From the NCBI GenBank assembly GCA_041946735.1, contig JBHGAY010000040.1:1-33959 (forward strand): 33,959 nucleotides of DNA, written 5' to 3'. Below are positions 14,925-33,959 of the stretch, in pieces. Position numbers and translations under genes: made by a program. This DNA is from Candidatus Eiseniibacteriota bacterium (GTDB lineage: Bacteria > Eisenbacteria > RBG-16-71-46 > CAIMUX01 > VGJL01). How positions within the stretch are numbered: the stretch's first letter is position 1; the number at the start of each line of letters is the position of its first letter. The notes beneath the pieces were generated by a model. It was not told the origin of the DNA. It ran no database searches and worked only from the letters and a program-made list of their open reading frames with translations.

Positions 14925-15305
14925 ATGAGCGAAGCGATCGGGCGAAGGGTCTGGGCGATCCCCGAAGGATACATACCGCCGCAGAGCCACGGGCCGGCCC
15001 CGGAGCTGACGAGCCACGAGGCGGTCTGCATCCTGAACACGGGCGAGTTCGACGCGAACGTGGAGATCACGATCTACTACGCCGACAGAGGTCCGGGCGG
15101 CCCCTACAGGATCGCCGTCCCGGCCGAGAGGACACGACACGTTCGCTTCAACGATCTGAACGATCCCGAGCCGATTCCAAAGGGGACGGACTACGCGAGC
15201 GTCATCCGCTCCGATATGCCGGTCGTCGTCCAGCACACGCGGCTCGATTCGCGTCAGGCGGAGAACGCGCTTCTCTCGACGATCGCCTTCCCTGTGTCCG
15301 ATTGA
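14925..15305 (+). CDS. Sensory rhodopsin transducer (ASRT/ASRAH) family protein
   Basis: GRRVWAIPEGYIP, SHEAVCILN, VPAERTRHVRFNDL, PVVVQHTRLDSRQAENALLSTIAF match the ASRT family pattern. GAGGAGG RBS. Confidence 0.9.
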   Translation: MSEAIGRRVWAIPEGYIPPQSHGPAPELTSHEAVCILNTGEFDANVEITIYYADRGPGGPYRIAVPAERTRHVRFNDLNDPEPIPKGTDYASVIRSDMPVVVQHTRLDSRQAENALLSTIAFPVSD

Positions 15306-15687: not shown

Positions 15688-16848
15688 GTGGCCACAGTTC
15701 GAGACGTCGCGCGCGCCTGTGGACTCTCGATCGCTACGGTCTCGCGCGTCTTCAACGGCAGCGCGAACGTCAGCGAGGAGACGCGTGCGCGTGTCCGCAA
15801 GGCGGCCGAAAAGCTCGACTACTATCCCAACTCCGCCGCGCGCAGCCTGACGACCAGCCGCACACACACGATCGGGGTCCTCCTTCCCGATCTCTACGGG
15901 GAGTTTTTCTCCGAAGTCATCCGCGGCCTCGACTACGCCGCGCGCCAGGCTTCGTTGCACATCCTGCTTTCCAGCGCGCACAACGACGGTGAAGCTCTCC
16001 TCGCCGCCGCTCGCTCGTTGCGGGGTCGGGTCGACGGTCTCGTCGTCATGGCCCCCGATTCGGGTTCGGCCGAGGCGATCCACAGGATCGCCTCGCAGTT
16101 CCCCGTCGTTCTCCTCAATCCGGGAACGAGCGCCACTCGCTGCAGCACGATCTCAATCGACAACCGGGAAGGAGCGCGATCCGTGGTCGCGCATCTCGTT
16201 CGCCTGGGACACCGGAGGATCGCGATCATCCTGGGGCCGCGCGGGAACATCGACGCGCAGCAGCGCCGGGAGGGATACCGCCGGGCCCTGGCGGCGGCGA
16301 GGATCGCGCCAGCCGTCGCGCTCGAGATCCCCGGGGACTTCACCGAAGCGGGCGGGTACCGCGCCGGGAAGCTTCTCCTCCAAATGCAACCTCGCCCTTC
16401 GGCCGTCTTCGCCGCGAACGACAACACCGCCATCGGACTCCTCGGAGCCCTCCGCGAGGCCCGCATCCGCGTGCCGCAGGACGTCGCAGTGGCGGGATTC
16501 GACGACATCGCCATCTCGAAGTACGTCACTCCGCCGCTCACGACGGTGCGGGTGGACGCCTATGGGTTGGGGGAGCGTGCGATCGCACTCTGGCTCCAGA
16601 TCGCCGCTCCGCCGGGAGGCGGGCGCCCGCCGAACGGCGGCGCCCCGGCGCGGCACGTCGTGTTGGCAACGGCGCTCGTCGTCCGCAAGTCGTGCGGCTC
16701 ATCGGCCGGATCGTTCAGGCTCGAAGGAAGCAAGCGGGCGGGAGGCCGCCGCGTCTCGCTCGTCGCCGATGCCACGAACACGTCCGATCCTCTGCGGGGG
16801 CGCTCGGCGCCGTCGCAGCCACGATCGCTCCGGAGGTGCTCGACATGA
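15688..16848 (+). CDS. LacI-family transcriptional regulator
   Basis: (M)ATVRDVARACGLSIATVSRVFN HTH, YYPNSAARSL, GHRRIAII, SAVFAANDNTAIG, VPQDVAVAGFDD, PPLTTV, LVVRKSCG. GTG 15688 follows GGGGGAG. Confidence 0.95.
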   Translation: MATVRDVARACGLSIATVSRVFNGSANVSEETRARVRKAAEKLDYYPNSAARSLTTSRTHTIGVLLPDLYGEFFSEVIRGLDYAARQASLHILLSSAHNDGEALLAAARSLRGRVDGLVVMAPDSGSAEAIHRIASQFPVVLLNPGTSATRCSTISIDNREGARSVVAHLVRLGHRRIAIILGPRGNIDAQQRREGYRRALAAARIAPAVALEIPGDFTEAGGYRAGKLLLQMQPRPSAVFAANDNTAIGLLGALREARIRVPQDVAVAGFDDIAISKYVTPPLTTVRVDAYGLGERAIALWLQIAAPPGGGRPPNGGAPARHVVLATALVVRKSCGSSAGSFRLEGSKRAGGRRVSLVADATNTSDPLRGRSAPSQPRSLRRCST

Positions 16849-18737
16849 AACCTGCGTGGATTGTTTCCGTGCTCGCCATCCCCGTGATCCTCCTGGTCGT
16901 CGCCTCGTCCGCCTCGGCCCGTCCGGATGCGATCTGGGCGAGGAGCGCCGACAACTTCAGCACGATCAACCTCGACGGAGTCCTCGACGAGGGTGCTTGG
17001 GCCCTGGCCGAATCGATGCACGTCGAATATCCCGTCGATGCGGGGATCCCGGGGAGTGGATGGAAGAGCGAGGGGGGAGTGACCCCCTCCAACCCGACAC
17101 GCGCGACCTTGAAGTTCCTCGTCCGCGGCAATCAGCTCTACATGGGCGCGATCGTCCATGACACCTCGGTCGGAGGATCCGCCTCGTTCAACCGCTTCGA
17201 CGGCTTCCTCATGTCGCTCAAGGACCATTCGAGCCCGAATCATCCGAAGCCACCCGCCGAGTACACCTACGCCTGGTGGTACCCGACGCTCGTCGATCCG
17301 CAGCCGCCCGGACAGCCCCCCGCGTTCATCGGCAGGTGGGCCGAGTGGCCTCCCGGGAGCCCCCGGACGGTCGAGCAGATCGCGAACTGGGATGCGCGCA
17401 CGATCGTCCACGGCCTGTCGAACTCCGACGCCACGCTCGACACCGACTGGACGACGGAGATGCGCTTCAATCTGACCCCGATGGGCTACGACACGCAGAC
17501 GATCGCGGGCGACATCATCGAGTTCAACATTTCCATCTACGACTGCGATTGGTTCTGGCCGCTCGACCCGATCCGGTTCAGCTCCAACCGCGTCTGGTGG
17601 CAGGGGCCCTGGGCGAATGCCGCCTGGTACAACGAAGTCCGGGTTCATGCCTCCTCCGTCGTCGGGATGCACTCCGCGTTGCCGGAGATCGAGCCGGAGT
17701 ACCTGATCGGCAACGGCGCGGCCGAAGGGACTCCGGTCATCGACGGCTCGCCGGGCGACGCGGTCTGGGCGAAGGTGCCCGGCTTCGAGATCCGCTTCGG
17801 CGACGACGATCTTCGCGAGACCTATGGGGGGATCGGCCCGTACCGCGCCGGGCAGTTCCAGCCGGAGGTCAACGGCGGTCTCGCCCCGGTGCTCGATCCG
17901 GGCGACGCGACCGTGAAGATGTTCTTCAAGGGCACGATGTTGTACATGGCGTTCGATGTCCGCGATCAGGTGGTGCAGTACCACCCGAGCTTCGATCGCT
18001 GGGACGGCTTCCTGGTCAGCTTGAACGAGCGCAACGAGCAGGGGCCCGACCACAATCTCCTCGGCCGCCGGCTCTCGTTCCAGGTCGGCGAGGCCGGGGC
18101 GGCGGTCCCGCACGACTACCTGCAGACGCTCGTCGAGGCGGGCAAGGCGCAGGTGGCCGTCGCTCTCCGGAGCGGCACGACCGTCGACACGCTCGGAATC
18201 GAGCCCGACAACGGGTACGCGGCCGAGCTGGCGGTCGATCTGACGGAGTTCGGCTACCCGGCCGATCTGGGCGACGGGGCGCTGTTCATCGGAGTCGATC
18301 TGCTCGACGGAGACTCGTTCATCCCGTACACGGACAGCTACGGGACCCGCACGTGGTGGTATCGCGAGTACGAGAACGAATGCTGTCCGGTCTGGGCGTA
18401 CATGGATCCGGACCTTCCGGTCGCCGGCGCGCAAGATGACGCCTGGGATACGGTCGCTTGGGACCTCCTCGACGCGCGGCCGAATCCGTTCACCGATCGG
18501 ACCACGTTCTCCTACAGCCTCCCCTCGCGATCGAGCGTCGTCATGGAGGTGTTCGATCCGCAAGGGAGGCGCGTCGAGCGTCGCGATCTCGGGACGCTGT
18601 CGCCGGGAGAGCATCAGGTTTCGATCGAGGGGAAGGGGAGGAGCGCCGGGGTGTACCTGGTGCGGATGACGATGACGGATCCCGATGAGGGAGCGGTCCT
18701 GGGACGGATCGCGGGAAGGCTGGTTCAGCTGAAGTGA
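16845..18737 (+). CDS. Secreted protein with two CBM9/DOMON-like sugar-binding repeats and a T9SS type A/FlgD-like C-terminal domain, 630 aa
   Basis: Signal peptide (..ASSASA). Repeated INLDGVLDEGAW / PVIDGSPGDAVW each followed by ..LYM..V.D. Trp-rich. C-terminus PNPF..TTFSYSLP..EVFDPQGRRV..SAGVYLVRM..RLVQLK. GGAGGT RBS and ATGA overlap with lacI. Confidence 0.7.
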   Translation: MKPAWIVSVLAIPVILLVVASSASARPDAIWARSADNFSTINLDGVLDEGAWALAESMHVEYPVDAGIPGSGWKSEGGVTPSNPTRATLKFLVRGNQLYMGAIVHDTSVGGSASFNRFDGFLMSLKDHSSPNHPKPPAEYTYAWWYPTLVDPQPPGQPPAFIGRWAEWPPGSPRTVEQIANWDARTIVHGLSNSDATLDTDWTTEMRFNLTPMGYDTQTIAGDIIEFNISIYDCDWFWPLDPIRFSSNRVWWQGPWANAAWYNEVRVHASSVVGMHSALPEIEPEYLIGNGAAEGTPVIDGSPGDAVWAKVPGFEIRFGDDDLRETYGGIGPYRAGQFQPEVNGGLAPVLDPGDATVKMFFKGTMLYMAFDVRDQVVQYHPSFDRWDGFLVSLNERNEQGPDHNLLGRRLSFQVGEAGAAVPHDYLQTLVEAGKAQVAVALRSGTTVDTLGIEPDNGYAAELAVDLTEFGYPADLGDGALFIGVDLLDGDSFIPYTDSYGTRTWWYREYENECCPVWAYMDPDLPVAGAQDDAWDTVAWDLLDARPNPFTDRTTFSYSLPSRSSVVMEVFDPQGRRVERRDLGTLSPGEHQVSIEGKGRSAGVYLVRMTMTDPDEGAVLGRIAGRLVQLK

Positions 18738-21388
18738 CAGGGAGGATCGAAGGGACGGCGGCCCGGGGGCTTTGGGTCAAGCTCGCGCTCGCGTGGCTCC
18801 TCGCCCTCTTCGTCGCATCCGCTGCCGAGGCGGGAACGACGGGGAAGCTCGCGGGCCGCGTCCTGGATCAGGCGGGAGCCCCGGTCGCCGGGGCGACGGT
18901 GGTGATTCTCGGCGAGCCGCTCGGCGCGTTCTCCGACTCCGACGGCTACTTCAACATCCTGAACATCCCGGCCGGGACGGTGAACGTGAACGTCAGCCAC
19001 GTGGCCTACCAGACGTTGACGATCCGCGACGTCGTGATCTCCGCGGACGAGACGACCCGCCTCGACGACATCCGGATGCAAAGTCGGACGGTCGCGCTCG
19101 AGGAGGTCGTCGTGAAGGCGGAGCGGCCCGTGGTCGACGTTCACCTGACGAGCAGCCGCAGCTCGGTCGATCGCGAGCAGATCGAATCGCTTCCCGTGCA
19201 GGAGCTGCAGGACGTCGTGAATCTCCAGGCGGGGGTGGTCGAAGGGCACATCCGCGGGGGACGGATCGGCGAGGTGCAGTACCAGGTCGACGGCGTCAGC
19301 GTGAACAATCCGTTCAACAACGAGTCGACCGTGAAGATCGACCGCTCGCTCCTGCAGGAAGTGCAGGTGATCAGCGGCGTGTTCGACGCGGAGTACGGCC
19401 AGGCGATGAGCGGCGTCGTCAACGCCGTCCTGCGCGACGGCACCGATCGCTTCGAGTGGAACGCCGAGGCGTTCACGGGAGGCTACGTCTTTCCGGGTCG
19501 CGAGAGCGCCCGCCTCACCGACGACAAGATCCGCCCGACCGGGATCCAGAGCTACCAGCTCAATCTGAGCGGTCCGCTCCCGGTCCCCAAGACGGTCTAC
19601 ATCGTCAGCGGCCGCCGGGCGCTCACCGACGGCTTCGTGCGGGCGACACGCCGCTTCGTGCCGACCGACAGCTCGGACTTCCAGAACAAGGTGTTCCGCC
19701 CGACGGGGGACGACAAGAACCTCCCGCTCGGGTACACCCGGGAGTGGTCGGGGGTCGCGAAGCTGACGAACCGGTCGATCGAGGGGATCACCCTCAGCTA
19801 TCAGGCTCTCGCGAACTGGATCGAGGGGAGGAGTGCGAACTTCTACTACCGCCTGAATCCCGATGGCCTTTCGAAGCAGAAGACGAAGTCGATCGCGCAC
19901 GGCCTCGACGTGACGCAGACGCTGAGCGAGCGGACCTATTACACGCTCAGCATGCGCCAGAACTACCTCGACTACACCGATCGCGTCTACGACAGCGCCT
20001 ACGACCCGCGCTACGACGCGGCCGGCCAGCCGCGCGGCGACGACGCCTACGAGCTCGGCGCGATCGTGCAGGGCGTGGAGCCGACGCGCTACATCCAGAA
20101 GACCAACAGCTGGCTGCTCAAGGGATCCTACGTCACGCAGACCCGACGGGACGTGATGCTGAAGATGGGGGCGGAGATCGAGTGGCCGTCGGTGAAGTTC
20201 GGGACGACCGAGGATCTCGTCTGGACCGGCGACACGCTCTCCCGGTTCCCGCGGCACGTGCCGAAGAATCGACCGATCCTGAGCGCCGGTTACGCGCAGG
20301 GGCAGCTGGAGTGGAACGACCTGACTCTGCGGACCGGGCTGCGGCTTCAGTACTTCGATGCCCGTTCCTCCATCCCGAGCGATCTCGCGAACCCGGCGAA
20401 CTCGATCTCCGGAGCGCCCGAATCGCACCCGAAGTCGACGACGGTGAAGTTCACCGCCGCTCCTCGCCTGGGGATCGCCTATCCGATTACCGACCGCTCC
20501 GGAATCCACCTCGCGTACGGGCACTTCTACCAGTTCCCCGCCCTCGGCGACATCTTCTCGAACGCGGACTACTCGGTGCTCGAGGGGCTCCAGTCGGGCG
20601 GGATCTCCTACGGGGTCCTCGGCAATCCGGACATCAAGCCGGAGAAGACCGTCCAGTACGAAATGGGATACCGGCAGGCTGTGACCGAGACGCTCGGCGC
20701 CGACCTGAGCGTCTTCTACAAAGACATTCGGGATCTGCTCGGGGTCGAGTTCGTGTCGACCTACAACGCCGCCGAATACGCCCGGCTGACGAACATCGAC
20801 TTCGGCTACGTGGTCGGGGTGACGCTCTCGCTCGACCAGCAATGGATCGGCCCCTTCTCGGCGACGCTCGACTACACCTGGCAGCTCGCGGAGGGCAACT
20901 CGAGCGATCCGCGCGAGACAGCGACGCGCGCGTCGGCAGGCGAGGATCCGCGCCCGCGCCAGATCCCGCTCAACTGGGATCAGCGGCACACCCTCAACAT
21001 CACCGCCACGCTGTCGGAGCCCAATCTCTACACCGCGAGCGCAGTGCTGCGAATCGGCAGCGGCCAGCCCTATACCCCGGTGCTGGAGCAGGCGTACGGC
21101 TACGGCCTCGAGGCGAACTCGGGCCGCAAGCCGGCCGGCATGACCGTCGACTTGCGGGCCGAGCGCAGCTTCACATTCTCCAACATGGATGTAGGGCTGT
21201 TCGGGCGCGTCTTCAATCTCTTCGACACGCGCTACTGGAATGGTCCGGTCTTCGGGAGCACCGGGAGCCCGTACTACTCGCGCTTCCCGGAGGCGGACAA
21301 GGTCCAGCTCGCCGACCCGACCCGCTTCTTCGCGCCGAGGAGGATCGAGATCGGCCTGCGGCTGCGCCCCGGGAGCGCTACGCCATGA
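18734..21388 (+). CDS. TonB-dependent receptor with N-terminal carboxypeptidase-regulatory-like domain
   Basis: Signal peptide ..AEA, then GTTGKLAGRVLD..P..GATV..DGYFNILNIPAG. Plug region HIRGGR..VQYQVDGV and GVFDAEYGQAMSGVVN. Barrel motifs PRLGIAYP, GNPDIKPEKTVQYEMG, FNLFD, PRRIEIGLRL. Confidence 0.9.
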   Translation: MTGRIEGTAARGLWVKLALAWLLALFVASAAEAGTTGKLAGRVLDQAGAPVAGATVVILGEPLGAFSDSDGYFNILNIPAGTVNVNVSHVAYQTLTIRDVVISADETTRLDDIRMQSRTVALEEVVVKAERPVVDVHLTSSRSSVDREQIESLPVQELQDVVNLQAGVVEGHIRGGRIGEVQYQVDGVSVNNPFNNESTVKIDRSLLQEVQVISGVFDAEYGQAMSGVVNAVLRDGTDRFEWNAEAFTGGYVFPGRESARLTDDKIRPTGIQSYQLNLSGPLPVPKTVYIVSGRRALTDGFVRATRRFVPTDSSDFQNKVFRPTGDDKNLPLGYTREWSGVAKLTNRSIEGITLSYQALANWIEGRSANFYYRLNPDGLSKQKTKSIAHGLDVTQTLSERTYYTLSMRQNYLDYTDRVYDSAYDPRYDAAGQPRGDDAYELGAIVQGVEPTRYIQKTNSWLLKGSYVTQTRRDVMLKMGAEIEWPSVKFGTTEDLVWTGDTLSRFPRHVPKNRPILSAGYAQGQLEWNDLTLRTGLRLQYFDARSSIPSDLANPANSISGAPESHPKSTTVKFTAAPRLGIAYPITDRSGIHLAYGHFYQFPALGDIFSNADYSVLEGLQSGGISYGVLGNPDIKPEKTVQYEMGYRQAVTETLGADLSVFYKDIRDLLGVEFVSTYNAAEYARLTNIDFGYVVGVTLSLDQQWIGPFSATLDYTWQLAEGNSSDPRETATRASAGEDPRPRQIPLNWDQRHTLNITATLSEPNLYTASAVLRIGSGQPYTPVLEQAYGYGLEANSGRKPAGMTVDLRAERSFTFSNMDVGLFGRVFNLFDTRYWNGPVFGSTGSPYYSRFPEADKVQLADPTRFFAPRRIEIGLRLRPGSATP

Positions 21389-24300
21389 CCGGGCGGGGCT
21401 ACGAGGAAGGGAGGAGGGATCCCGAGTTGGGGACGAGCAAGCGTAAGGAATCGAACGGAGCGGGGCGTGCAGCCGGCGCGCCGATCCGCCGCTGCGCGGG
21501 GATCGCGATTCGAGTCGCCATCCCCGCGAGCCTCGTGCTTCTCGCCGCGGCGCTGATCGTCCCGGCGGCAAGCGGGCAGGTCCCCCCCGAGGAGCGGGGG
21601 ACGGCGGAGGCGGAGCGCTCCGGATTCCACGACGCAGCGAACATCCGGACCGTCTTCTGGAACTATGGCATGGTCGGCGACTATCCGCCCGACCCGGGGA
21701 ACGTCGATCTCTCGGTCTTCCATTCCGTCGAGGTCCCGAAGGGGACCGGAATGAACTATTCGGACGGAATCACCCCCTTCGTCCTCGCAAAGGTGCAGAC
21801 GCGCGGCGGCGAGGACGCCTACATCATGGAGACCGGCTTCCGGGAGCGGCAGGGGACGAGCCCCTACTTCAACCGCGTGATGCGCTTCGAGCCGCGCCCC
21901 GGCTACTTCCAGGCCGATCCCGACATCAACCGGGGCCGCTCGCCCGCCGTCTCCAACGATCCGCGCACCTGGCCCGATAGCTGGCCCGACAAGCTCCTCG
22001 ATCCCGACGATCCCGGTTGGGCCGGAAGCTGGAACGGCTACTTCGGCAAGCGGCCGGCTGCGGACCTCGAATCGTTCACGGTCATGGACGACCAGTACTA
22101 CGACGCATGGGACTTCTACCCGGACGACCGTGACTCCACGCGACGCGGCCTCGGGCTTCGGATCGAAGTGCGCGGGTTCCAGTGGGCGAACCCGCAAGCC
22201 GGCAACGTCATCTTCTGGCACTACGACATCACGAACGAGGGGACGACCGACTACGACGACAACATCATCTTCGGCCTGTACATGGACTCCGGCGTCGGCG
22301 GCTCGGCCCTCTCCTGCGACGGCATCTACGAGTCGGATGACGACAACGCCTTCTTCGACCGGCGCTTCAACGAGAACATCCTGAACCTGGTCTACACGTG
22401 GGATCGCTACGGGCACGGCCGCGACCTCTCCGGCTCGTGCGGCAGGACCGGCTACCTCGGCTACGCGTATCTCGAGACGCCGGGCAATCCCACCGACGGG
22501 ATCGACAACGACGAGGACGGCATCACGGACGAGAGGCGGGACGGTGGACCAGGCGAGGAGATCGTCGGCCGCGAAGCGATCCTCGCCTACGTCACGAGCC
22601 ACTACGATCTCGCCCGCTTCGAGGTCGAGCACGGCCCGGTCACGAGGCGCCCGGCCTACCGCGCCGGACGGTGGTGGACCGGCGACGAGGACCTCGACTG
22701 GAGCGTCGATCTGCACGACGTCGGCGCCGATGGGGTCGCCGACACGCACGACGCCGGCGAAGGGGACGGGATGCCGACCGAGGGGGAGCCGTACTTCGAC
22801 GGCACCGACCTGCACGAGTCGGATCAGATCGGCCTGACCGGCTTCAAGATGAACCGGATCAAGGCGGGGCAAGGCAATCCGGATCCGACGTCCGACAACA
22901 TCGTCTTCTTCACCGACGCGCAGAACTGGCCGCAGCGGCTCTACGAGCAGTTCACCGACCCGGTCGAGGCGAACCGCTTCGACCCGCCGCTCGCCGCGAA
23001 CTACAACATCGGGTTCCTCTTCGCTTCGGGACCGTTCCGGCTCGAGGCCGGAAAGACCGAGCGCTTCAGCCTCGCGCTCGCTTACGGCGGAGACCTCGAC
23101 GAGCTTCGCCGCACGGTGCAGACCGTCCAGCTCATCTACAACGCGAACTACCAGTTCGCGACCCCGCCTCCGCCCCCGATCGTGACGGCCGAGACGGGCG
23201 ACCGCCGGGTGCGCCTCTCCTGGACGGACGAGTCGGAGCGGGGCATCGATCCGGTGACCGGCGAGTACGACTTCGAGGGGTATCGCGTCTATCGCTCGAC
23301 CGATCCCGACTTCCTCGACGTCAAGCTCGTGCGCACCGGGACCGGCTCGAACACGCTCGGCAACGGAAAGCCGACCGTCCAGTTCGATCTCGCCGACGGC
23401 AAGCGGGGCTTCTCGGAGCAGACGGTCGAGGGGGTCGCCTACTACCTCGGATCCGACACGGGGATCCGGCACACCTGGACCGATTCGACCGTCACGAACG
23501 GCCAGCAGTACTACTACGCGGTGACCGCGTACGACTACGGCTCCGACTCTCTAGGCTTCTACCCCTCGGAGAACGCGATCCCCGTCTCGCGCACGCCGCG
23601 CGGCGGGCTGATCCTCGGGCAGAACGTCGTCGCGGTCCGGCCGAATCCTCCCGTGCTCGGGTACCGGCCCGCGACGATCCAGGATGTGACGCACGCGCAG
23701 GGGGAGGGGACCGGGTCGGTCGAGATCGAGGTGGTCAACTCCAACGAGGTGCCGGACGACCACCTCTTCCGGCTCACGTTCGAGACCCCGAACCCCGACT
23801 CGATCCGCGCGTCGAGCTACACGCTGACCGACAGCACGACGAGCACCGTCCTGTTCAAGTCGGGGCGCGACCTCTCGGGACGCGGCATCGGGCCGGTCGC
23901 GGAGGGGCTGCTGCCGGTGATCCGGACGCAGCGATGGGTCGAAGTCGATACGGTCCGAAGCGGATTCACGGAAGGGAGCCCGACGAGCACCAAGCTCGAC
24001 ATCTCCTACCTCCCCGATCCGCAGGTGTCGCAGAACCAACGGCGGATCGGCTACCCCGACGACGTCACGATCACGTTCGACGACGTGGTGCGCGACACCT
24101 CGCTCGCGCGCGTCGGCCTGCCGGCGCGCCCGGCGAAGTTCTTCATCACCGCGCACACCGACGCGGGCGACGTCCGGCTCGACTTTCGCTTCCGCGAAGT
24201 CGACGGGAAGATCGACGGGACGCTCAGCGATCCGGGGGAGTACATCGACATCATCACCTACCTCTCCGGCTCTCCCGTTCCGCACGCGACCTGGCGAGCG

Positions 24301-24771
24301 CAGATCGACACGACGGGCGTCGGGGATCTTCCGATCGATCCGCCGGGAGCGGGGGACGTCTACGAGATCGTGCTCACGAAGCCGTTCAGCTCCGACGACG
24401 TCTTCTACTTCCGCACGCGATCGGAAGGAGTCGACCTCGCAGCGGCCAAGGCCGAGGACTCCTTCCACCCCTACGTCGTGCCAAACCCGTACGTCGGATC
24501 CGCGAGCTTCGAGCCGGAGCGGTTCGCCGTCTCCGGGAGGGGAGAGCGCCGCATCGAGTTCCGCGGCATCCCGAGGGGCTGCACGATACGGATCTATACG
24601 GTGCACGGAGACCTCGTCGAGACGCTCCACCACGAAGGAGGGGACGAGGGCTTCCTCGCGTGGGACCTGAGGACGAAGGACAACCTGGACGTCGCGCCCG
24701 GCCTCTACGTCTTCCATGTCGACGGCGGTTCGCTCGGCGAGCGGATCGGGAAGTTCGCGATCATCAAATGA
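21385..24771 (+). CDS. Large secreted protein (about 1128 aa) with Asp-rich Ca-binding-like motifs, an FN3 domain and a T9SS-like C-terminal domain
   Basis: Hydrophobic signal ending ..AASG-Q; DGIDNDEDGITDE; DVGADG..DAGEGDG.PT.GEP; FN3 (VRLSW..FEGYRVYRS..YYYAVTAYD); C-terminus YVVPNPY..IRIYTVHGDLV..WDL..APGLYVFHV..GKFAIIK. Start placed at the ATGA overlap; the exact start is uncertain. Confidence 0.8.
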   Translation: MTGRGYEEGRRDPELGTSKRKESNGAGRAAGAPIRRCAGIAIRVAIPASLVLLAAALIVPAASGQVPPEERGTAEAERSGFHDAANIRTVFWNYGMVGDYPPDPGNVDLSVFHSVEVPKGTGMNYSDGITPFVLAKVQTRGGEDAYIMETGFRERQGTSPYFNRVMRFEPRPGYFQADPDINRGRSPAVSNDPRTWPDSWPDKLLDPDDPGWAGSWNGYFGKRPAADLESFTVMDDQYYDAWDFYPDDRDSTRRGLGLRIEVRGFQWANPQAGNVIFWHYDITNEGTTDYDDNIIFGLYMDSGVGGSALSCDGIYESDDDNAFFDRRFNENILNLVYTWDRYGHGRDLSGSCGRTGYLGYAYLETPGNPTDGIDNDEDGITDERRDGGPGEEIVGREAILAYVTSHYDLARFEVEHGPVTRRPAYRAGRWWTGDEDLDWSVDLHDVGADGVADTHDAGEGDGMPTEGEPYFDGTDLHESDQIGLTGFKMNRIKAGQGNPDPTSDNIVFFTDAQNWPQRLYEQFTDPVEANRFDPPLAANYNIGFLFASGPFRLEAGKTERFSLALAYGGDLDELRRTVQTVQLIYNANYQFATPPPPPIVTAETGDRRVRLSWTDESERGIDPVTGEYDFEGYRVYRSTDPDFLDVKLVRTGTGSNTLGNGKPTVQFDLADGKRGFSEQTVEGVAYYLGSDTGIRHTWTDSTVTNGQQYYYAVTAYDYGSDSLGFYPSENAIPVSRTPRGGLILGQNVVAVRPNPPVLGYRPATIQDVTHAQGEGTGSVEIEVVNSNEVPDDHLFRLTFETPNPDSIRASSYTLTDSTTSTVLFKSGRDLSGRGIGPVAEGLLPVIRTQRWVEVDTVRSGFTEGSPTSTKLDISYLPDPQVSQNQRRIGYPDDVTITFDDVVRDTSLARVGLPARPAKFFITAHTDAGDVRLDFRFREVDGKIDGTLSDPGEYIDIITYLSGSPVPHATWRAQIDTTGVGDLPIDPPGAGDVYEIVLTKPFSSDDVFYFRTRSEGVDLAAAKAEDSFHPYVVPNPYVGSASFEPERFAVSGRGERRIEFRGIPRGCTIRIYTVHGDLVETLHHEGGDEGFLAWDLRTKDNLDVAPGLYVFHVDGGSLGERIGKFAIIK

Positions 24772-25940
24772 GCCGGAACCGTGCGACAGAGGAGCGCGAA
24801 GCGATCTCGAAGCCGGCGGGGGACGAACTCGAAATGAGCAGGGAGATGGACGGGGCAGAGACGAACCGAACGGATGGGAGAGGGATGGACCGGCAGGGAA
24901 GCGTGAGAAGCGGAATCGCCCGATCGTCGTGGACGCGGATGGCTCTCGCCGCCGCGTGTGCGAGCCTCCTCGCGTACGGCTCGGCTGCCGCGCAGAGCAA
25001 GAGCGGCACCTCGATCGGCGCGTTCCTGAAGATCGAGCCGGGCGCGCGCGCCGCGGCGCTCGGGAATGCTGGGGTGGCGCTCGACGAGGGGATCCAGTCG
25101 GTCTACTACAATCCGGCCGCCCTCGGCAGAATCGGGGAGATCTCCGCGGGCTTCACGCACAGCGAGTGGTTCGCGGGGATCGCATTCGACTATGCCGGGC
25201 TTGCGATCCCACTCGGGAATTTCGGGACGGTCTTCGGATCGGTCACCTCGCTGAACTCCGGCGACATCGACGTTCGCACGGTCGACCAACCGCTTGGGAC
25301 CGGCGAGCGCTACGACGTGAGCGATCTCGCGATCGGCTTGGGCTACGGCCGCGTGATCACCGAACGTTTCGCGGCCGGCGCGCAGCTCAACTACGTCGAG
25401 GAGCGGATCTGGCACACCACGCTGCGCACGGTCGTGCTGAACATCGGGACGGTCTTCCGGATCTCGGAGAACGGGTTGCGCATCGGCGCGAGCATCTCGA
25501 ACTACGGGACGCGCGCGCGCTTCTCCGGGCGGGACCTCGCGATCCAGTACGATCAGGACCCGGAGACGCACGGCGACAACTCCTCGCTCCCCGGTGAGCA
25601 GTACGCGGACAAGTTCGGCGTCCCGATCGTGTTCCGCTTCGGCGGAGGGATGCCGTTCCGAGTCAGCCGGGATGCGACGCTGCTGCTGGCGCTCGACGCT
25701 CTCCATCCGAGCGACAACACGGAGAGCGTTTCGAGCGGCGCAGAGCTCACGTTCCGCGAGGCGCTGTCGGTGCGCGCCGGGTACCAGCAGCTCTTCCAGG
25801 AGGACTCGGAGGCCGGGCTGACGCTCGGCGCCGGACTCCGGGGCGCGCTGGCGGAGCACGGGTTCCAGTTCGACTACGCATGGGCGGATCAGGGCCGGCT
25901 CGAGCGGACGCATCGGTTCACGTTCGAGGTGGCGTTCTGA
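24768..25940 (+). CDS. PorV/PorQ-family (FadL-like) outer-membrane beta-barrel protein
   Basis: After the signal peptide: AFLKIEPGARAAALGNAGVA..SVYYNPAAL, alternating beta-strands, LSVRAGY, GLTLGAG, FDYAW..HRFTFEVAF with terminal Phe. The true start may be 24885 or later. Confidence 0.85.
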   Translation: MSRNRATEEREAISKPAGDELEMSREMDGAETNRTDGRGMDRQGSVRSGIARSSWTRMALAAACASLLAYGSAAAQSKSGTSIGAFLKIEPGARAAALGNAGVALDEGIQSVYYNPAALGRIGEISAGFTHSEWFAGIAFDYAGLAIPLGNFGTVFGSVTSLNSGDIDVRTVDQPLGTGERYDVSDLAIGLGYGRVITERFAAGAQLNYVEERIWHTTLRTVVLNIGTVFRISENGLRIGASISNYGTRARFSGRDLAIQYDQDPETHGDNSSLPGEQYADKFGVPIVFRFGGGMPFRVSRDATLLLALDALHPSDNTESVSSGAELTFREALSVRAGYQQLFQEDSEAGLTLGAGLRGALAEHGFQFDYAWADQGRLERTHRFTFEVAF

Positions 25941-25966: not shown

Positions 25967-27667
25967 ATGAGACGAAGCCTGTTCGCGCTCCTCCTGCCTG
26001 CCGCGGCCATGGCCATGGCCGCGGTCCCGGCGATCGCGGCGATCGCCGTGGGGGCGGCCGTCGCCGCCACCGTGGCCTCCGGCCCGGCCGAAGCGCTACC
26101 CGGCGAGGCGCTCGCGAACGGATCGCCCGCGAACGGATCGCTCGCGAACGGAGCGCTCACGAACGAGGCGCTCCTCGACACGCTGCAGCGCACGGCGTTC
26201 GACTTCTTCTGGAACGAGGCGAATCCCGCGAACGGATTGATCAAGGATCGCAGCACGCCCGGCTCTGCCTGCAGCATCGCGTCGGTCGGCTTCGGACTTT
26301 CCGCGATCCTGATCGGGATCGATCATGGCTGGATCACTCGGGACGAGGGGCGGGCGCGCATCCTGACGACCCTCGAGACCTTCTGGAACGGGCCGCAGGG
26401 GACGGCGCCGGACGGCATGATCGGCTACAAGGGCCTCTTCTACCACTTCCTCGACATGAACACGGCGACCCGCACGTGGGATTGCGAGCTCTCCACGATC
26501 GACTCGGCCCTCCTGTTCGCGGGGATCCTCGACGCGCGCGAGTACTTCACGACGGACGATCCGGTCGACGTCCAGGTCCGCACGCTCGCCGACTCGCTCT
26601 ACTACCGGGCCGACTGGAACTTCTTCCGCAACGGCAACCCGGGAATCCTGATGGGATGGCGGCCCGGGACCGGGTTCGCCGGCTTCGGCCAGTGGGTCGG
26701 CTACAACGAGGCGATGATCCTCTACATCCTCGCGATCGGATCGCCGACACACCCGGTGCCGGCTTCCTCCTGGAACACCTGGACGAGCGGCTACCACTGG
26801 CAGACGCAGTACGGCTACACCTACGTGATCTTCCCGCCGCTCTTCGGACACCAGTACTCGCACTGCTGGATCGATTTCCGCTATATCCAGGACGCGTACA
26901 TGCGCGGGCGCGGGATCACCTACTTCGAGAATTCCCGCCGGGCGACGCTCGCGCAGCGCAACTACTGCATCGCCAACCCCTTCGGCCACATCGGCTACGG
27001 CGCGAACCTCTGGGGGATCACCGCGTGCGACGGTCCGGACGGCTACGCGGCGCACGGCGCGCCGCCGCCTCAGAACGACGATGGGACGATCGCCCCGACC
27101 GCGCCGGCCGGCTCGATCCCGTTCACGCCCGATGAGTCTCTGGCGGTCCTGCAAAACCTGTACGACAATTACCGGGCGATGCTGTGGGGACCGTACGGCT
27201 TCCGCGACGCATTCAATCTGGACCGCGGATGGTGGGATACCGATTATATCGGTATCGACCAGGGCCCGATCGTCCTCATGATCGAGAACTACAGGACGGG
27301 GGCTGTCTGGGAGAGGATCGAGCGGAACGGGGATGTGCAATGGGGCCTTCACCTGGCCGGATTCGATGTCGCGACCGGCGTCGCCGGCGCAACGGCGGCT
27401 TCCCCGCGGCTGCTCCTGCATCCGGCATCCCCGAATCCGCTGACGAGCGACTCGGAGCTGGCTTTCGAACTTCCGGCTCCCGGGCGCGCGGTGCTGACCC
27501 TCGTCGACGTGACCGGGAGGGAGTGCGCGACTCTGCTCGACGCCTCGCTCCCTGCCGGTTCCCACGTCGCGAGGATCGACCCGTCCCGGCTGCCGAGCGG
27601 AATCTATTACGCGAGACTGATCTTCGGACACGAGGCGCGCGCGACACGCTGCCTCGTCCTCCGATGA
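25967..27667 (+). CDS. GH144 (glucoamylase-like) putative endo-beta-1,2-glucanase with a T9SS/FlgD-like C-terminal domain
   Basis: LLDTLQRTAFDFFW, GLIKDR, SIASVGFGL, ELSTIDSALL, GYNEAMILYILAIGSP, PLFGHQYSHCWIDFR, WGITACD, TIAPTA, WGPYGFRDAFN, IGIDQGPI..IENYR. Tail PNPL..DVTGR..LPSGIYYARL..RCLVLR. Confidence 0.85.
   Translation: MRRSLFALLLPAAAMAMAAVPAIAAIAVGAAVAATVASGPAEALPGEALANGSPANGSLANGALTNEALLDTLQRTAFDFFWNEANPANGLIKDRSTPGSACSIASVGFGLSAILIGIDHGWITRDEGRARILTTLETFWNGPQGTAPDGMIGYKGLFYHFLDMNTATRTWDCELSTIDSALLFAGILDAREYFTTDDPVDVQVRTLADSLYYRADWNFFRNGNPGILMGWRPGTGFAGFGQWVGYNEAMILYILAIGSPTHPVPASSWNTWTSGYHWQTQYGYTYVIFPPLFGHQYSHCWIDFRYIQDAYMRGRGITYFENSRRATLAQRNYCIANPFGHIGYGANLWGITACDGPDGYAAHGAPPPQNDDGTIAPTAPAGSIPFTPDESLAVLQNLYDNYRAMLWGPYGFRDAFNLDRGWWDTDYIGIDQGPIVLMIENYRTGAVWERIERNGDVQWGLHLAGFDVATGVAGATAASPRLLLHPASPNPLTSDSELAFELPAPGRAVLTLVDVTGRECATLLDASLPAGSHVARIDPSRLPSGIYYARLIFGHEARATRCLVLR
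26108..26173 (+). repeat. 15-bp in-frame tandem repeat (about 4.4 copies) in the GH144 N-terminal linker
   Basis: GCGCTCGCGAACGGA / TCGCCCGCGAACGGA / TCGCTCGCGAACGGA / GCGCTCACGAACGAG / GCGCTC, encoding ALANG-SPANG-SLANG-ALTNE-AL. Confidence 0.85.
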
Positions 27668-27855: not shown

Positions 27856-28758
27856 ATGAAGACTCGGATCCTGCAGGCCGTCTTGCTTGCGGCGGCCCTC
27901 GTGTCGTTCAGCGGTGTCGCGTCCGCGACGCCCGATGTCAACAGCGCCGTGATCCAGCTACGGATCTTCAACGATTGCCCGACGTCGGTCGTCACGACCG
28001 ACAACAGCTATCCCACGACCATCACGATCCGCGACAGCCAGGTCAACTGCCAGAGCGGATTCGCGAACCTGCACAATTGGCGGTTCTCGGAGGACGGAGC
28101 GACCCCGGCCGTCTTCAACAACGCCGACGCGTTCCGCTTCGGCGCATGGCTCGTGCTCGACGGCACGCTCAACGGCGAGTCGGGCCTCCAGGTCAGCCCC
28201 TGGTGGTCGCAGGACGTCGACGGCCGCCTGAACGTCAAGGCGGGCGACGGCGAGATCGCCGCCTTCGGCGGCCGGCTCCCGTTCTACTCCTTCACCGCGT
28301 CCCAGGGGCTTACCTACCAGCGCGGGACTCCGATCTATCTCGAGATCGTCTACTACCCGCATGACCTCACTCAGCAGAACCCCGGGACGATCGAGTACAA
28401 GCTGAACTACAACGGCACCGACTACACGAGCGGCGTCCTCGCCTTCGACGAGGGCAACCCCAACGAGCCGTACGGCACCTGGGGGATCCTGGACAACGCT
28501 CGGGTCGGCGCCCATCTCCAGGTTCTCGTCGATCCCAACAATCCCGAGGGCTATCTCGACGCGACCTGGCGGGACATCGTGTTCGAGAAGCTCGACGGCG
28601 CCTGCTGCCTCAACGAGGTCTGCCAGATCCTCCCCGAGGAGCAGTGCCTCAACGCGGGCGGCATCTACCAGGGCAACGCCACCGGCTGCGATCCGAATCC
28701 CTGCGGAACGGCGGTCGAGACCTCGACCTGGGGTCGCGTGAAGTCGAGCTACCGGTAG
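27856..28758 (+). CDS. Secreted hypothetical protein (300 aa): beta-rich domain, six-Cys GACC module and C-terminal TWGxxK tail
   Basis: GGAGGAGG RBS; signal peptide MKTRILQAVLLAAALVSFSGVASA; strongly biased codon use; ends GACCLNEVCQILPEEQCLNAGGIYQGNATGCDPNPC-GTAVETSTWGRVKSSYR*. Confidence 0.85.
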   Translation: MKTRILQAVLLAAALVSFSGVASATPDVNSAVIQLRIFNDCPTSVVTTDNSYPTTITIRDSQVNCQSGFANLHNWRFSEDGATPAVFNNADAFRFGAWLVLDGTLNGESGLQVSPWWSQDVDGRLNVKAGDGEIAAFGGRLPFYSFTASQGLTYQRGTPIYLEIVYYPHDLTQQNPGTIEYKLNYNGTDYTSGVLAFDEGNPNEPYGTWGILDNARVGAHLQVLVDPNNPEGYLDATWRDIVFEKLDGACCLNEVCQILPEEQCLNAGGIYQGNATGCDPNPCGTAVETSTWGRVKSSYR

Positions 28759-28765
28759 CAGTCCG

Positions 28766-28820
28766 GCGGCGGTTTCCGGGGCGGCGGGCCGATCGGGCGC
28801 GCCGCCTGCGGAAACGCCGC
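28766..28820 (+). other. Long imperfect stem-loop after the secreted-protein block
   Basis: GCGGC/GCCGC, GTTTCCG/CGGAAAC and GGCGGCG/CGCCGCC are nested complementary segments. Confidence 0.6.
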
Positions 28821-28931
28821 ATGAACACGACGATCGAGACGAGGGCGCGGCCGGTTTCCAGCGGGAGCCGGCCGCTCCCGTGACGAGCGAGGTGGCGGCG
28901 GCGGCAGGCAGGCGGAGGGGGAGAGGCCAGG

Positions 28932-30185
28932 ATGGCGTCGGTTCGTCTTGAAGGGATCGAGAAGGTCTTCCCGGGAGGTCACGAGGCGCTCGTCGACGTG
29001 AACCTCGAGGTCGCCGACGGCGAGCTGGTCGTCCTGCTTGGGCCGTCGGGATGCGGGAAGAGCACGCTGCTGCGGATCGTGGCCGGCATCGAGGCGCCGA
29101 CGCGCGGGCGCCTCTTCATCGGCAAGGAGGACGTGACCGATCTGCCTCCGCAGAAGCGGGACGTCGCGATGGTCTTCCAGAACTACGCTCTCTACCCGCA
29201 CATGAGCGTCCGCGACAATCTCGCCTTCGGAATCCGGATGCGCGGGCTCGATCGCGCGGAGATCGGCGAGCGCGTGGCGACCGTCTCGAAGAGCCTGGGG
29301 ATCTCCGAGCTGCTCGACCGCAAACCCTCGCAGCTCTCCGGCGGCCAGCGGCAGCGCGTCGCCCTCGGGCGCGCGATCGCGCGCGACGCGAAGGTCTTCA
29401 TGCTCGACGAGCCGCTCTCGAACCTCGACCTCCAGCTCCGGCAGTCGACGCGGCGCGAGCTTGCCCGCCTGCACCGGCAGGTGAAGGTCCCGATGCTCTA
29501 CGTCACGCACGATCAGGAGGAGGCGATGACCCTCGGCGACCGGGTCGTCGTCCTGCGCGCCGGGCGCGTGCTGCAGATCGGCACGCCGATGGAGGTCTAC
29601 GCGAAGCCGCGGAACCTCTTCGTCGCCGGCTTCGTCGGCTCCCCGCGGATGAACTTCCTGCGCGGGCGGCTGGAGCCGGGGGATAGCGTCGCCGACCCGG
29701 CGCGGATCGGCGTGCGCGTCGTCCTCGATCCCGAGGTGAGCGGGCGACCGCAGCCGGGCGTGATCGAAATCGGCGGGACCGCGGCGGGGACCTCGCTACG
29801 CCTGCCTTGCGACGTGATCGCCGGCGTGCGGCCGGAGGATCTCGAGATCGTCGATGCGGAGGAGGGCGCGGCCGCCGACCTGCTCGCGCGCGTCGACCTG
29901 GTCGAGCCGCTCGGCCGGGAACATCTCCTCCATCTCTTCCGCGAGGGGGCCGTGCCGGATGGTGGCGCCGGCCGCGCTTCCGGCGGGGGTGGCGGGACGA
30001 TGGGACCGGGCGCCGCCGCAGGCGCCGGCGCAGGCTCCGGCGCGGGCGCCGAGCTGCGCGTCCTCGCCGAGCCGTCGCGGCGCATCGCCGCCGGCGCGCG
30101 GATCGGGCTTCGCTTGCGGCGCGACCGCCTCCACCTTTTCGATCCCGGGAGCGAGGAGCGGATCGAGGAGCGGATCGTCCGATGA
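28932..30185 (+). CDS. Carbohydrate ABC transporter ATP-binding subunit (MalK/MsmX/UgpC family)
   Basis: GPSGCGKSTLLR, AMVFQNYALYPHM, LSGGQRQRVALGRA, DEPLSNLD, YVTHDQEEAM, FVAGFVGSPRMN, C-terminal TOBE-like GVRPED..VEPLG. Confidence 0.95.
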   Translation: MASVRLEGIEKVFPGGHEALVDVNLEVADGELVVLLGPSGCGKSTLLRIVAGIEAPTRGRLFIGKEDVTDLPPQKRDVAMVFQNYALYPHMSVRDNLAFGIRMRGLDRAEIGERVATVSKSLGISELLDRKPSQLSGGQRQRVALGRAIARDAKVFMLDEPLSNLDLQLRQSTRRELARLHRQVKVPMLYVTHDQEEAMTLGDRVVVLRAGRVLQIGTPMEVYAKPRNLFVAGFVGSPRMNFLRGRLEPGDSVADPARIGVRVVLDPEVSGRPQPGVIEIGGTAAGTSLRLPCDVIAGVRPEDLEIVDAEEGAAADLLARVDLVEPLGREHLLHLFREGAVPDGGAGRASGGGGGTMGPGAAAGAGAGSGAGAELRVLAEPSRRIAAGARIGLRLRRDRLHLFDPGSEERIEERIVR

Positions 30186-31095
30186 GCGTGCTGGAAGGAG
30201 GAGGCGCGGCGGCCGAAAGTGGCGCGGGCGCGGCGCGCGGGGCGGGCGCGGCGGAGCCGCTGGCGAGTCGGCTGCTCGGGAATGGACGTACCACCGTCCT
30301 TTTGACCGAAGCGGGGACCGGTTTCACGCGGTGGGGGGACTTGTGGCTGACCCCCTGGGGCGACGATCCGGTCGAGGATCCGGATGGCTTCTTCGTCTAC
30401 CTGAGGGAGCGTGGGCCCGATCGCCCGCTCTTCTCCGCCGGAGCCGCTCCCTGCGGACTGCCGATCGACGTGCGCTACCAGCGCCCGATCTGGGGGGAGG
30501 AGAGCTTCGGGACGGCACGCAGCGAGCACGGCCTCGAGATCGTGTGGGAGGGATGCGTCCCTCCGAAGCCGGATCTCGACTTGCGCCGGCTCGTCCTGCG
30601 CAACCGCACCCGCCGCCGTCGAGTGATCGAGGCGACCTCGTGCATCGAGATCGTGCTCGCGCCGCTGAGCGCCTTTCGCGCGCACCCGGTCTTCTCGAAG
30701 CTGTTCGTGCAGACGTGGGCGGTGCCGAAGAGTGGGGCGCTCCTGGCCCGCCGGCGCCCGCGCTCGAGCGACGAGGCGACTCCCTGGCTCGCGCATGCCG
30801 TGATCGACGGCCCGATGGAAGGATACGAGACGGACCGCGCGCACTTCTTCGGACGGGGCGGCACGCGCGTGCGCCCGCGGGCGCTCGTCGCGAACGCGCG
30901 CGCCGGGCTGTCCGGGACGACCGGGAACGTCCTCGATCCGCTCTTCTCCATCCGAACGACGGTCGAGCTGGGGCCGGGGGAGAGCAAGAGGATCGTGTGG
31001 GCGCTTGGAGCGGGAGAGGATCGCGAGGAGCTGCTCGGTCGCTTCGAGGCGATGAAGCGGCCGGGCGCGGTCGAGAAGGCCTTCGGGATCGTGCC

Positions 31096-31099
<4 letters not shown>
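30182..31099 (+). CDS. Stand-alone GH94 N-terminal beta-sandwich domain (NdvB/ChvB-like), 305 aa
   Basis: LLGNGRTTVLLTEAGTGFTRWGDLWLTPWGDDPVEDPDGFFVYLRE, EIVLAP..AHPVFSKLFVQT, YETDRAHFFGRG, LSGTTGNVLDPLFSIR match the first GH94N domain of the cyclic beta-1,2-glucan synthase C-terminal region. ATGA overlaps at both ends. Confidence 0.8.

Positions 31100-33959
<2,860 letters not shown>

Follow-up and report, generated by a model that had tools for sequence, protein, structure and literature searches.

What could a TonB-dependent receptor, a large protein with the tail of a type IX secretion cargo and a PorV-like barrel be doing together, encoded by three overlapping genes? The question is raised by contig JBHGAY010000040.1 (assembly GCA_041946735.1), analysed here in its entirety (33,959 bases, ~67% G+C) and called the window below. 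A first-pass annotation, made from the letters of this DNA, had proposed that the barrel is a private shuttle or anchor which holds the large protein on the cell surface as a lid or substrate-capture partner of the receptor, and that this would be a functional alternative to SusCD. We find that the three genes, hereafter the trio, keep their arrangement far beyond chance, and that the tail of the large protein is predicted to dock on the barrel.

An open reading frame (ORF) check of the window placed the three genes on the + strand in the order receptor (P0001, 884 residues), large protein (P0002, 1128 residues) and barrel (P0003, 390 residues); coordinates are given in Table 1. Their reading frames are backed by GC3 (third-codon-position G+C) frame analysis, and all genes called in the window by this analysis and a codon-usage gene caller lie on the + strand. 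The letters ATGA are found at 21385, between receptor and large protein, and at 24768, between large protein and barrel, and a GTGA at 18734 couples a fourth gene to the receptor gene. Both trio junctions are matched without differences by contigs from other public runs, X3 over 21254-21503 and X2 over 23494-25089. No RNA data set was listed as holding this stretch, which has no bearing on whether its genes are expressed. The letters and frames of the first-pass annotation were confirmed, as were the tail motifs that it quoted (VVPNPY...WDL...GLY...GKFAIIK), which are present at the C-terminal end of P0002; its term 'giant' is overstated for a protein of this length. The start used by the barrel probably lies downstream of the ATGA at 24768, because a signal-peptide-like stretch starts near residue 55 of P0003 and because the matches of relatives' barrels (tblastn) start near residue 78, 72-777 nucleotides (median 93) past the end of the large-protein match. 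The 4-nucleotide overlap is therefore present in the DNA and need not be a translational junction.

The receptor scored above the cut-offs expected of a TonB-dependent receptor, with 32.4 bits for PF07715 (cut-off 23.9) and 100.4 bits for PF00593 (cut-off 27). It did not pass the SusC/RagA model TIGR04056 (65.7 bits against a cut-off of 368.25), for which only the N-terminal model positions 2-120 were aligned. The barrel passed the PorV/PorQ family model NF033709 (PorV_fam) with 184.7 bits against a cut-off of 90, over model positions 5-326 of 326, and stayed below the equivalog cut-offs of PorV (NF033710, 64.7 versus 250 bits) and PorQ (NF033711, 79.3 versus 220 bits). At E ≤0.01 it had no Pfam match, so none to FadL/OmpP1/TodX (PF03349), and no PorP/SprF row in NCBIfam; its only FadL-related NCBIfam row was FilD, at 15 bits against a cut-off of 970. 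A FadL-type identity of the barrel was dropped on these family scores, which bear out its earlier description as PorV-like. Eight PorV-family matches above cut-off were found in the source genome. A reading of the trio as containing a porU-porV pair was also dropped: PorU is encoded on contig 10, and the 1128-residue protein carries no Peptidase_C25 domain.

P0002 itself matched no family of Pfam or NCBIfam at E ≤0.01. Its last 110 residues hold the PNPY ... GKFAIIK motifs. When the tails of 24 aligned homologues were searched alone against Pfam, FlgD_ig was matched by 17 (best E 0.0047), Por_Secre_tail by nine (best E 0.033) and CHU_C (PF13585, type B) by five (best E 0.013), all below threshold, and the cut-off of the type A sorting domain (PF18962 / TIGR04183) of type IX secretion systems (T9SS) was not reached by P0002. 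The profile of P0002-type tails aligned with that of 42 canonical C-terminal domains (CTDs) of the same genome with an hhalign probability of 98.5% (E 1.9e-15, 85 aligned columns), from which it differs by an insertion of ~15 residues after PNPY. By this sequence comparison the P0002 tail is homologous to the type IX sorting domains of its own genome, as the first-pass annotation had suspected, and forms a divergent subtype of them. This subtype is strong in only four source-genome proteins, versus 238 with a canonical CTD at the C-terminus, and three of the four are encoded between a receptor and a PorV-family barrel.

Barrel and CTD were then folded together, from alignments of 31 and 24 rows, respectively. 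Three runs scored 0.92, 0.92 and 0.93, compared with 0.00 for the best of three controls; they shared at least 84% of contacts, with a partner pLDDT (predicted local distance difference test) of at least 79. In calibration, 116 of 157 solved complexes attained the pass mark, as did two of 215 mismatched pairs; these counts are rough only, since our own alignments were used here. The interface that the first-pass annotation would lead one to expect is thus predicted; the model supports binding of the CTD by the barrel and does not amount to a demonstration of it.

To see what the tail would carry, we turn to the fold of P0002. The AlphaFold2 model (95 aligned sequences) had a mean pLDDT of 88.8 and a pTM (predicted template modelling score) of 0.83. 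Values below 50 were restricted to the CTD insertion and to residues 1-41 of the leader, which has a helix at 41-57; matches of relatives start at residues 3-70, mostly 35-70. VIA-align against 48,161 PDB representative chains aligned residues ~70-590 (up to 740) with beta-supersandwich domains of carbohydrate enzymes, namely a dextran dextrinase (9ju0; Z 20.5, root-mean-square deviation 3.0, 268 aligned), a glucoamylase (1lf6; Z 19.6), 8rf9 (Z 18.6), a GH94 laminaribiose phosphorylase (6ggy; Z 18.0), a 1,2-beta-oligoglucan phosphorylase (5h3z; Z 16.0) and several galactose mutarotases (Z 12-14). The supersandwich carries acidic DxDxDG-type loops. No catalytic alpha/alpha-barrel stands beside it in the model, the rest of which consists of FN3/Ig-like beta domains and the CTD. 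A model of residues 60-600 alone (46 close orthologues) reached a pLDDT of 63.9 and was set aside, the full-length model being used for the fold search. Foldseek with the whole model gave no global match, only PorZ (5m11; E 4.3e-7, TM-scores 0.09 and 0.13) and FN3/Ig arrays; we read the PorZ row as a likeness of CTD and of beta-rich structure, not as a common body. Matches of the P0002 profile to PDB sequences were marginal only (PorU CTD, E 0.012; 3mpc, Fn3-like, E 0.039; PorZ, E 0.26).

The large protein is the best-conserved gene product of the locus, with a median identity of 66.5%, followed by GH144 (58.2), the receptor (56.1), the barrel (54.5), LacI (53.7), the 633-residue protein encoded upstream of the receptor (46.8) and GH94 (37.1). 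In the supersandwich region, the mean column identity over 46 orthologues is 72%. Among 7999 candidates scored, 1428 were relatives of P0002 at E ≤0.001; the best 120 share 65-74% identity with it, and all those named by their source are labelled 'hypothetical'. ESM Atlas matches were to uncharacterised clusters only. Counted as 50%-identity representatives, the family comprises 4060 clusters at E ≤0.001, of which 607 reach E ≤1e-30.

How constant is the gene order? For the collection of orthologous loci, each species was represented by a single genome; of 335 candidate stretches, 307 carry a gene for a relative of the large protein, and 80 loci were kept. Their phylum labels are Eiseniibacteriota (23), Bacteroidota (11), Ignavibacteriota (5), Rhodothermota (4), Krumholzibacteriota (4), Calditrichota (4), Kryptoniota (1), Chloroflexota (1) and Deferribacterota (1), with none named for 26. 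Among the loci with enough flank, to which all synteny counts refer, the receptor gene is immediately 5′ of the large-protein gene in 52 of 53 (L058 has it ~2 kb off), the barrel gene is immediately 3′ in 63/63, and both flank it in 44/44. A homologue of the 633-residue protein is encoded 5′ of the receptor in 40/42 loci and GH144 3′ of the barrel in 35/53.

The trio is not restricted to this locus. The source genome holds a second one on contig 13 (receptor 898, partner 827 and barrel 322 residues) and a third on contig 11 (955, 1028 and 341 residues), so that three of its ~9 receptor-like proteins (E <1e-14) belong to trios. Trio-type CTDs number 2-8 per genome in 61/61 genomes sampled from the phylum (60/60 without the unpublished G015). 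From 292 such matches, 40 were picked by hand down the listed rows, their neighbourhoods unseen, skipping the source genome, G015, the orthologue group and several other rows (some at contig ends). The 39 evaluable loci fell into 31 full trios, eight with neither receptor nor barrel and none with just one of them. These 31 trios are two further orthologue groups, that is two more old modules, and not 31 independent cases.

Four genomes of other phyla gave 13 (labelled Rhodothermales), 17 (Calditrichota), 13 (Ignavibacteria) and 13 (labelled Bacteroidetes) matches to the CTD profile. Thirty-six loci, covering 37 of these 56 listed matches, were examined and both sides could be evaluated in 34. 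Of these, 30 are trios: in 29 the genes run receptor-partner-barrel, in L154 receptor-barrel-partner. Two loci have a receptor only and two neither gene. The co-occurrence of the three families, on which the first-pass proposal hinged, thus holds among orthologues, within the phylum and in other phyla. In a Pfam scan of 79 neighbouring ORFs, a carbohydrate-linked neighbour was found beside 14 of the 30 trios: LacI regulators (5 ORFs), CBM9 proteins (3 ORFs, two of which also match Por_Secre_tail), an alpha-amylase with CBM48, a Pel9A-like beta-helix, GH106, sugar kinases, ROK and RpiR regulators and solute-binding proteins. Other trios lie beside peptidases (U32, M61, S46), SurA-like isomerases, GWxTD or DUF4397 proteins, or a multihaem cytochrome. 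A GWxTD protein is encoded 3′ of the barrel both in the contig-13 trio (L015:4910-6331, G000:C13:30910-32331) and in a Calditrichota trio (L156:11015-12298); 5′ of the contig-13 trio are genes for an EB_dh (DOMON-like) protein and for a 483-residue protein with a faint PorV-family match.

Trees were built for barrels (56 rows), CTDs (51 rows) and receptors (35 rows), with SH-aLRT (Shimodaira-Hasegawa-like approximate likelihood ratio test) support from a quick method. All three split into the same groups: A (the beta-1,2-glucan group to which the window belongs), B (partner of ~1050 residues) and C (partner of ~850 residues). Support for A, B and C is 100, 100 and 99 in the barrel tree and 96, 99 and 98 in the CTD tree; in the receptor tree it is 100 for both B and C, group A being one row only. 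One locus, L121, was first put in group C by size and relabelled B after the barrel tree, its partner gene being split by a frameshift. Trio barrels are set apart from the other PorV-family members of the source genome (SH-aLRT 88). The CTD insertion (window 24487-24540, residues ~1035-1052) is near-invariant in group A and differs in both paralogous groups. It has a pLDDT below 50 in the monomer model and is not part of the confidently predicted contact with the barrel; a third partner might bind there.

Parts of the trio also occur alone. Barrel clade C includes an orphan of the source genome (G000:C24:20241-21191) with no partner gene alongside, which adjoins thiamine and peptidase genes, and a 592-residue protein with a trio-type CTD (G000:C12:77423-79201) has no trio-type barrel alongside; the two could pair in trans. 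A cargo with a private barrel of a different kind was seen on contig 4 (G000:C4:65167-79837), where a 4312-residue protein with a FlgD_ig-type CTD (L021:1167-14105) is followed by a 543-residue protein in which a PorV-family barrel is fused to TSP_3 repeats and to an OmpA peptidoglycan-binding domain (L021:14206-15837).

Would the host be able to export such a cargo? Of the machinery that the first-pass annotation named, SprA is present (C14:38532-42638; 355.9 bits, or 492 bits with a neighbouring segment in the same frame), as is PorU (C10:77107-81303; 596 bits against a cut-off of 420), and GldK gave partial matches only, under its cut-off. A hidden Markov model (HMM) of the canonical CTD matched 254 source-genome proteins, including the 238 mentioned above; proteins with a canonical CTD, some 240-250, make up roughly 6% of gene calls. 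SusD was sought with PF07980 and PF14322: neither matched in the source genome (94.8% complete), a Bacteroides thetaiotaomicron control giving matches, no SusD/RagB homologue is encoded among the window genes, and SusD was not found in four of five other carrier genomes tested.

We propose that the outer-membrane core of the locus is a co-inherited cassette. The 1128-residue protein would be exported via the type IX secretion pathway; its divergent CTD would be retained, not cleaved, and held by the PorV/PorQ-type barrel encoded immediately 3′. This tether would put the carbohydrate-type supersandwich on the cell surface, beside the receptor encoded immediately 5′. There the large protein, the CBM9-like 633-residue protein and the secreted GH144 glucanase would capture glucan chains or oligosaccharides and feed the receptor, in parallel to SusD and the surface glycan-binding proteins of Bacteroides loci, and GH94, GH1 and the ABC ATPase would complete breakdown inside the cell. 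We put the probability of this mechanism as a whole at about 0.55. We infer cooperation with the receptor because the adjacency of the two genes is invariant and because the phylum sample shows both partners, or neither, but never one. Synteny and the carbohydrate-enzyme type of fold suggest that the large protein could act as a lid or capture partner on the receptor. A broader reading, which we hold tentatively and consider possible rather than probable, would make the trio the core of an old, SusD-independent import machine, in which a supersandwich protein, delivered by type IX secretion, is docked next to the receptor by its uncleaved tail on a private barrel and serves as a substrate-loading lid. 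Copies of the cassette would have been adapted to many different substrates, and cargo and barrels that stand alone would pair in trans.

Several observations weigh against these proposals. GldL, GldM and GldN were unmatched in the source genome, and GldM in five other carrier genomes as well, in searches that had no positive control, so that absence is not shown; the machinery expected by the first-pass annotation was in this sense recovered in part. Eight of the 39 phylum relatives have no receptor or barrel nearby, one of which (L150) follows a complete trio. The contig-13 and contig-11 trios adjoin housekeeping genes, not glycan enzymes, and 16 of the 30 trios of other phyla, some beside peptidases, have no carbohydrate-linked neighbour. 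One of the five carrier genomes (labelled Rhodothermales) holds SusD together with the trio, at odds with a strict functional alternative to SusCD as first suggested. PorV-family complexes have already been solved structurally, and the pass of the complex model may reflect likeness to these rather than specificity of the pair. Finally, SusD-like and glycan-binding proteins are usually variable; the high conservation of the large protein would suggest an enzyme or a hub with several partners more than a simple binder.

An enzymatic role is kept in play because this conservation is very high and unexplained. The large protein would then be a surface enzyme anchored by the barrel, for example an undescribed glycanase or glycan-modifying enzyme, and the receptor would merely import its products, with no lid contact. 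Many Asp/Glu columns of P0002 are invariant in orthologues and near-invariant across the wider family, and its top fold matches are all domains of carbohydrate-active enzymes. In the matched enzymes, however, the supersandwich is an accessory to a separate catalytic domain; fold searches revealed no further enzyme domain in P0002, residues past ~740 being barely covered, and the locus already has a secreted GH144. The acidic motifs, moreover, resemble DxDxDG calcium sites. We consider an enzyme unlikely. What the barrel does could also be different: as a private export or shuttle factor it would draw an atypical CTD through SprA or away from it, much as type B cargo needs SprF-type proteins, without anchoring it, and the CTD would then be cleaved and the protein released or attached elsewhere. 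PMC10202324 describes PorV as a shuttle and states that neighbouring cargo needs PorP/SprF proteins for its secretion; the contact predicted between barrel and CTD could belong to a transient or equally to a stable complex, and PorU is present. A stable pair is favoured, if not decisively, by the strict one-to-one co-inheritance of barrel and cargo with matching splits into three groups, and by the precedent for cognate PorV-like barrels, which in the same source (PMC10202324) is CTD retention, again not decisive. This shuttle role appears to us improbable, a shade more so than an enzyme.

It is conceivable, lastly, that the three products are co-regulated outer-membrane neighbours with no physical association. 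The barrel would then act like FadL, as a channel for small molecules that are hydrophobic or derived from sugars. The PorV and FadL families of barrels are related to each other, and the paralogous barrel of contig 13 scored 28.3 bits for Toluene_X, just below the cut-off of 29.7. Against this stand the family scores of the window barrel (no FadL-type Pfam match at E ≤0.01, PorV_fam cut-off passed), the contrast of 0.92 with 0.00 in interface modelling and the fact that a rare CTD subtype tracks the barrels, and we judge it very improbable. We therefore retain, at the probability given, a barrel that holds the large protein by its uncleaved tail next to the receptor. If this is true, the use of PorV-family barrels would reach beyond secretion machinery to the dedicated anchoring of partners in nutrient uptake, and a large block of 'hypothetical' environmental genes, the family of 4060 clusters, would gain a role. 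With SusD not found in the tested Eisenbacteria, Calditrichota and Ignavibacteriota genomes, the trio is a candidate loader of their TonB-dependent transporters; and if the broader reading of an old import machine were true, nutrient uptake in Bacteroidota-related phyla would depend on type IX secretion.

The genes around the trio are listed in Table 1 with its own features. The tail of the 633-residue protein P0274 matched the canonical-CTD HMM of its own genome with E 5.2e-15; in Pfam, P0274 gave FlgD_ig (E 1.1e-6), Por_Secre_tail (E 0.0012) and CBM9_1 (E 0.004, below the cut-off of this family). Residues 482-565 of the glucanase match the canonical-CTD HMM as well (E 2.8e-13). Homologues of the LacI regulator occur somewhere in 30 of the 80 related loci and those of the 300-residue protein in 22. 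PF10091, matched by the glucanase, is the family that we take to be GH144, a name backed by PMC8861115. Beta-1,2-glucan is the substrate of GH144 and GH94 enzymes of such kind. The gene content of the window is best explained as that of a LacI-controlled beta-1,2-glucan utilisation locus of a Candidatus Eisenbacteria-like bacterium.

Table 1. Features of the trio and of the surrounding locus (window positions)
Feature	Coordinates	Strand	Evidence or remark
LacI-family regulator, likely sugar-responsive repressor	15688..16848	+	Pfam LacI, Peripla_BP_1, Peripla_BP_3
633-residue secreted protein P0274, canonical T9SS-type CTD, possible CBM9-like repeat	16836..18737	+	candidate surface glycan-binding protein
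TonB-dependent receptor P0001	18734..21388	+	signal peptide, CarboxypepD_reg, plug, barrel; PF13620, PF07715, PF00593 above cut-offs
Large protein P0002 (whole ORF)	21385..24771	+	
P0002 N-terminal leader	21385..21591	+	hydrophobic signal-peptide-like stretch; start codon uncertain
P0002 beta-supersandwich domain (galactose-mutarotase-like), residues ~70-590	21592..23154	+	AlphaFold2 model, VIA-align
P0002 FN3-like and further all-beta sandwich domains, residues ~598-1015	23176..24429	+	DSSP of model, Foldseek
P0002 C-terminal domain, divergent T9SS-type sorting domain	24457..24768	+	hhalign; ~15-residue insertion after PNPY
PorV/PorQ-family outer-membrane barrel P0003, predicted holder of P0002 CTD	24768..25940	+	NF033709, complex model
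GH144-type putative endo-beta-1,2-glucanase with own canonical T9SS CTD	25967..27667	+	PF10091 E 3.9e-84
300-residue protein, role unassigned	27856..28758	+	weak DUF3592 match only; kept in part of loci
MalK-type ABC transporter ATPase	28932..30185	+	ABC_tran, OB_MalK, TOBE_2
GH94 phosphorylase homologue, two frames, split at 31096	30182..33663	+	GH94 supersandwich and catalytic domains
GH1 beta-glucosidase homologue, 5′ part, continues past contig end	33660..33959	+	Glyco_hydro_1 E 6.2e-42

Some further observations concern these neighbours. The two frames of the GH94 gene are joined by an ATGA at 31096; both parts are in one frame in 10/10 relatives, whose genes hold an extra 240-560 nucleotides between them. 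The split is not an error of the present assembly alone, because contig X2, from an independent run, shows identical letters (30844-33095). Over part of the ABC ATPase gene (28579-29776), metagenome contigs stack 10- to 30-fold with many variant letters, most likely because they carry the conserved portion of this gene from other organisms. Just upstream of the LacI gene, at 14925-15305, lies a gene for a homologue of the Anabaena sensory rhodopsin transducer (PF07100, E 9.9e-56).

How does the trio relate to known systems? The textbook model of glycan capture is SusC/SusD (RagA/RagB). As there, the gene of a TonB-dependent transporter with a CarboxypepD_reg domain lies by that of a surface protein, in a regulated locus with glycan enzymes. 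Unlike SusC/SusD, the trio has no SusD homologue and its receptor is under the SusC/RagA cut-off. Its partner protein is a T9SS cargo and not a lipoprotein as SusD is, the leader having no lipobox-type cysteine; SusD, a helical protein, is about half as large as this all-beta partner.

The PorZ-PorQ and PorU-PorV pairs of the Porphyromonas gingivalis attachment complex resemble the trio in another way: a T9SS cargo sits with an uncleaved CTD on a barrel of the PorV/PorQ family, which keeps it at the cell surface. For the trio, binding of the CTD by a barrel of this family is predicted by modelling. The body of the trio cargo is a supersandwich, whereas PorZ is made of beta-propellers. Unlike PorV and PorQ proper, the trio barrel is under both equivalog cut-offs. 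The two Porphyromonas pairs belong to the secretion machinery itself, and their genes have no TonB-dependent receptor gene as a neighbour. The trio pair, in contrast, is multiplied, with three copies in the source genome and, in one Calditrichota genome, as many as 17 CTD matches. Retention of the PorZ and PorU CTDs on PorQ and PorV is described in PMC10202324. The same source describes type B cargo systems (SprB-SprF of Flavobacterium johnsoniae, PG1035-PorP of P. gingivalis), in which cargo and barrel genes are clustered, as in the trio, the barrel is specific to the neighbouring cargo and the CTD is probably uncleaved. In contrast to these, the trio barrel belongs to the PorV/PorQ family, the trio CTD is closest to type A / FlgD_ig-like domains and the unit includes a TonB-dependent receptor.

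With the beta-1,2-glucan (SGL) cluster of Ignavibacterium album, where GH144 homologues, a GH94 homologue and a TonB-dependent transporter are found together (Kobayashi et al. 2022, PMC8861115), the trio locus shares GH144, GH94 and the transporter. Import of sophoro-oligosaccharides by that transporter is only speculated by the authors and, unlike the trio locus, the cluster has no large partner or PorV-like barrel mentioned in the accessible part of the account (PMC8861115). No paper on a module of TonB receptor, CTD protein and PorV-like barrel was found in a literature search that left subscription journals largely uncovered. We conclude that the trio is real, widespread and so far undescribed, a new combination of known parts.

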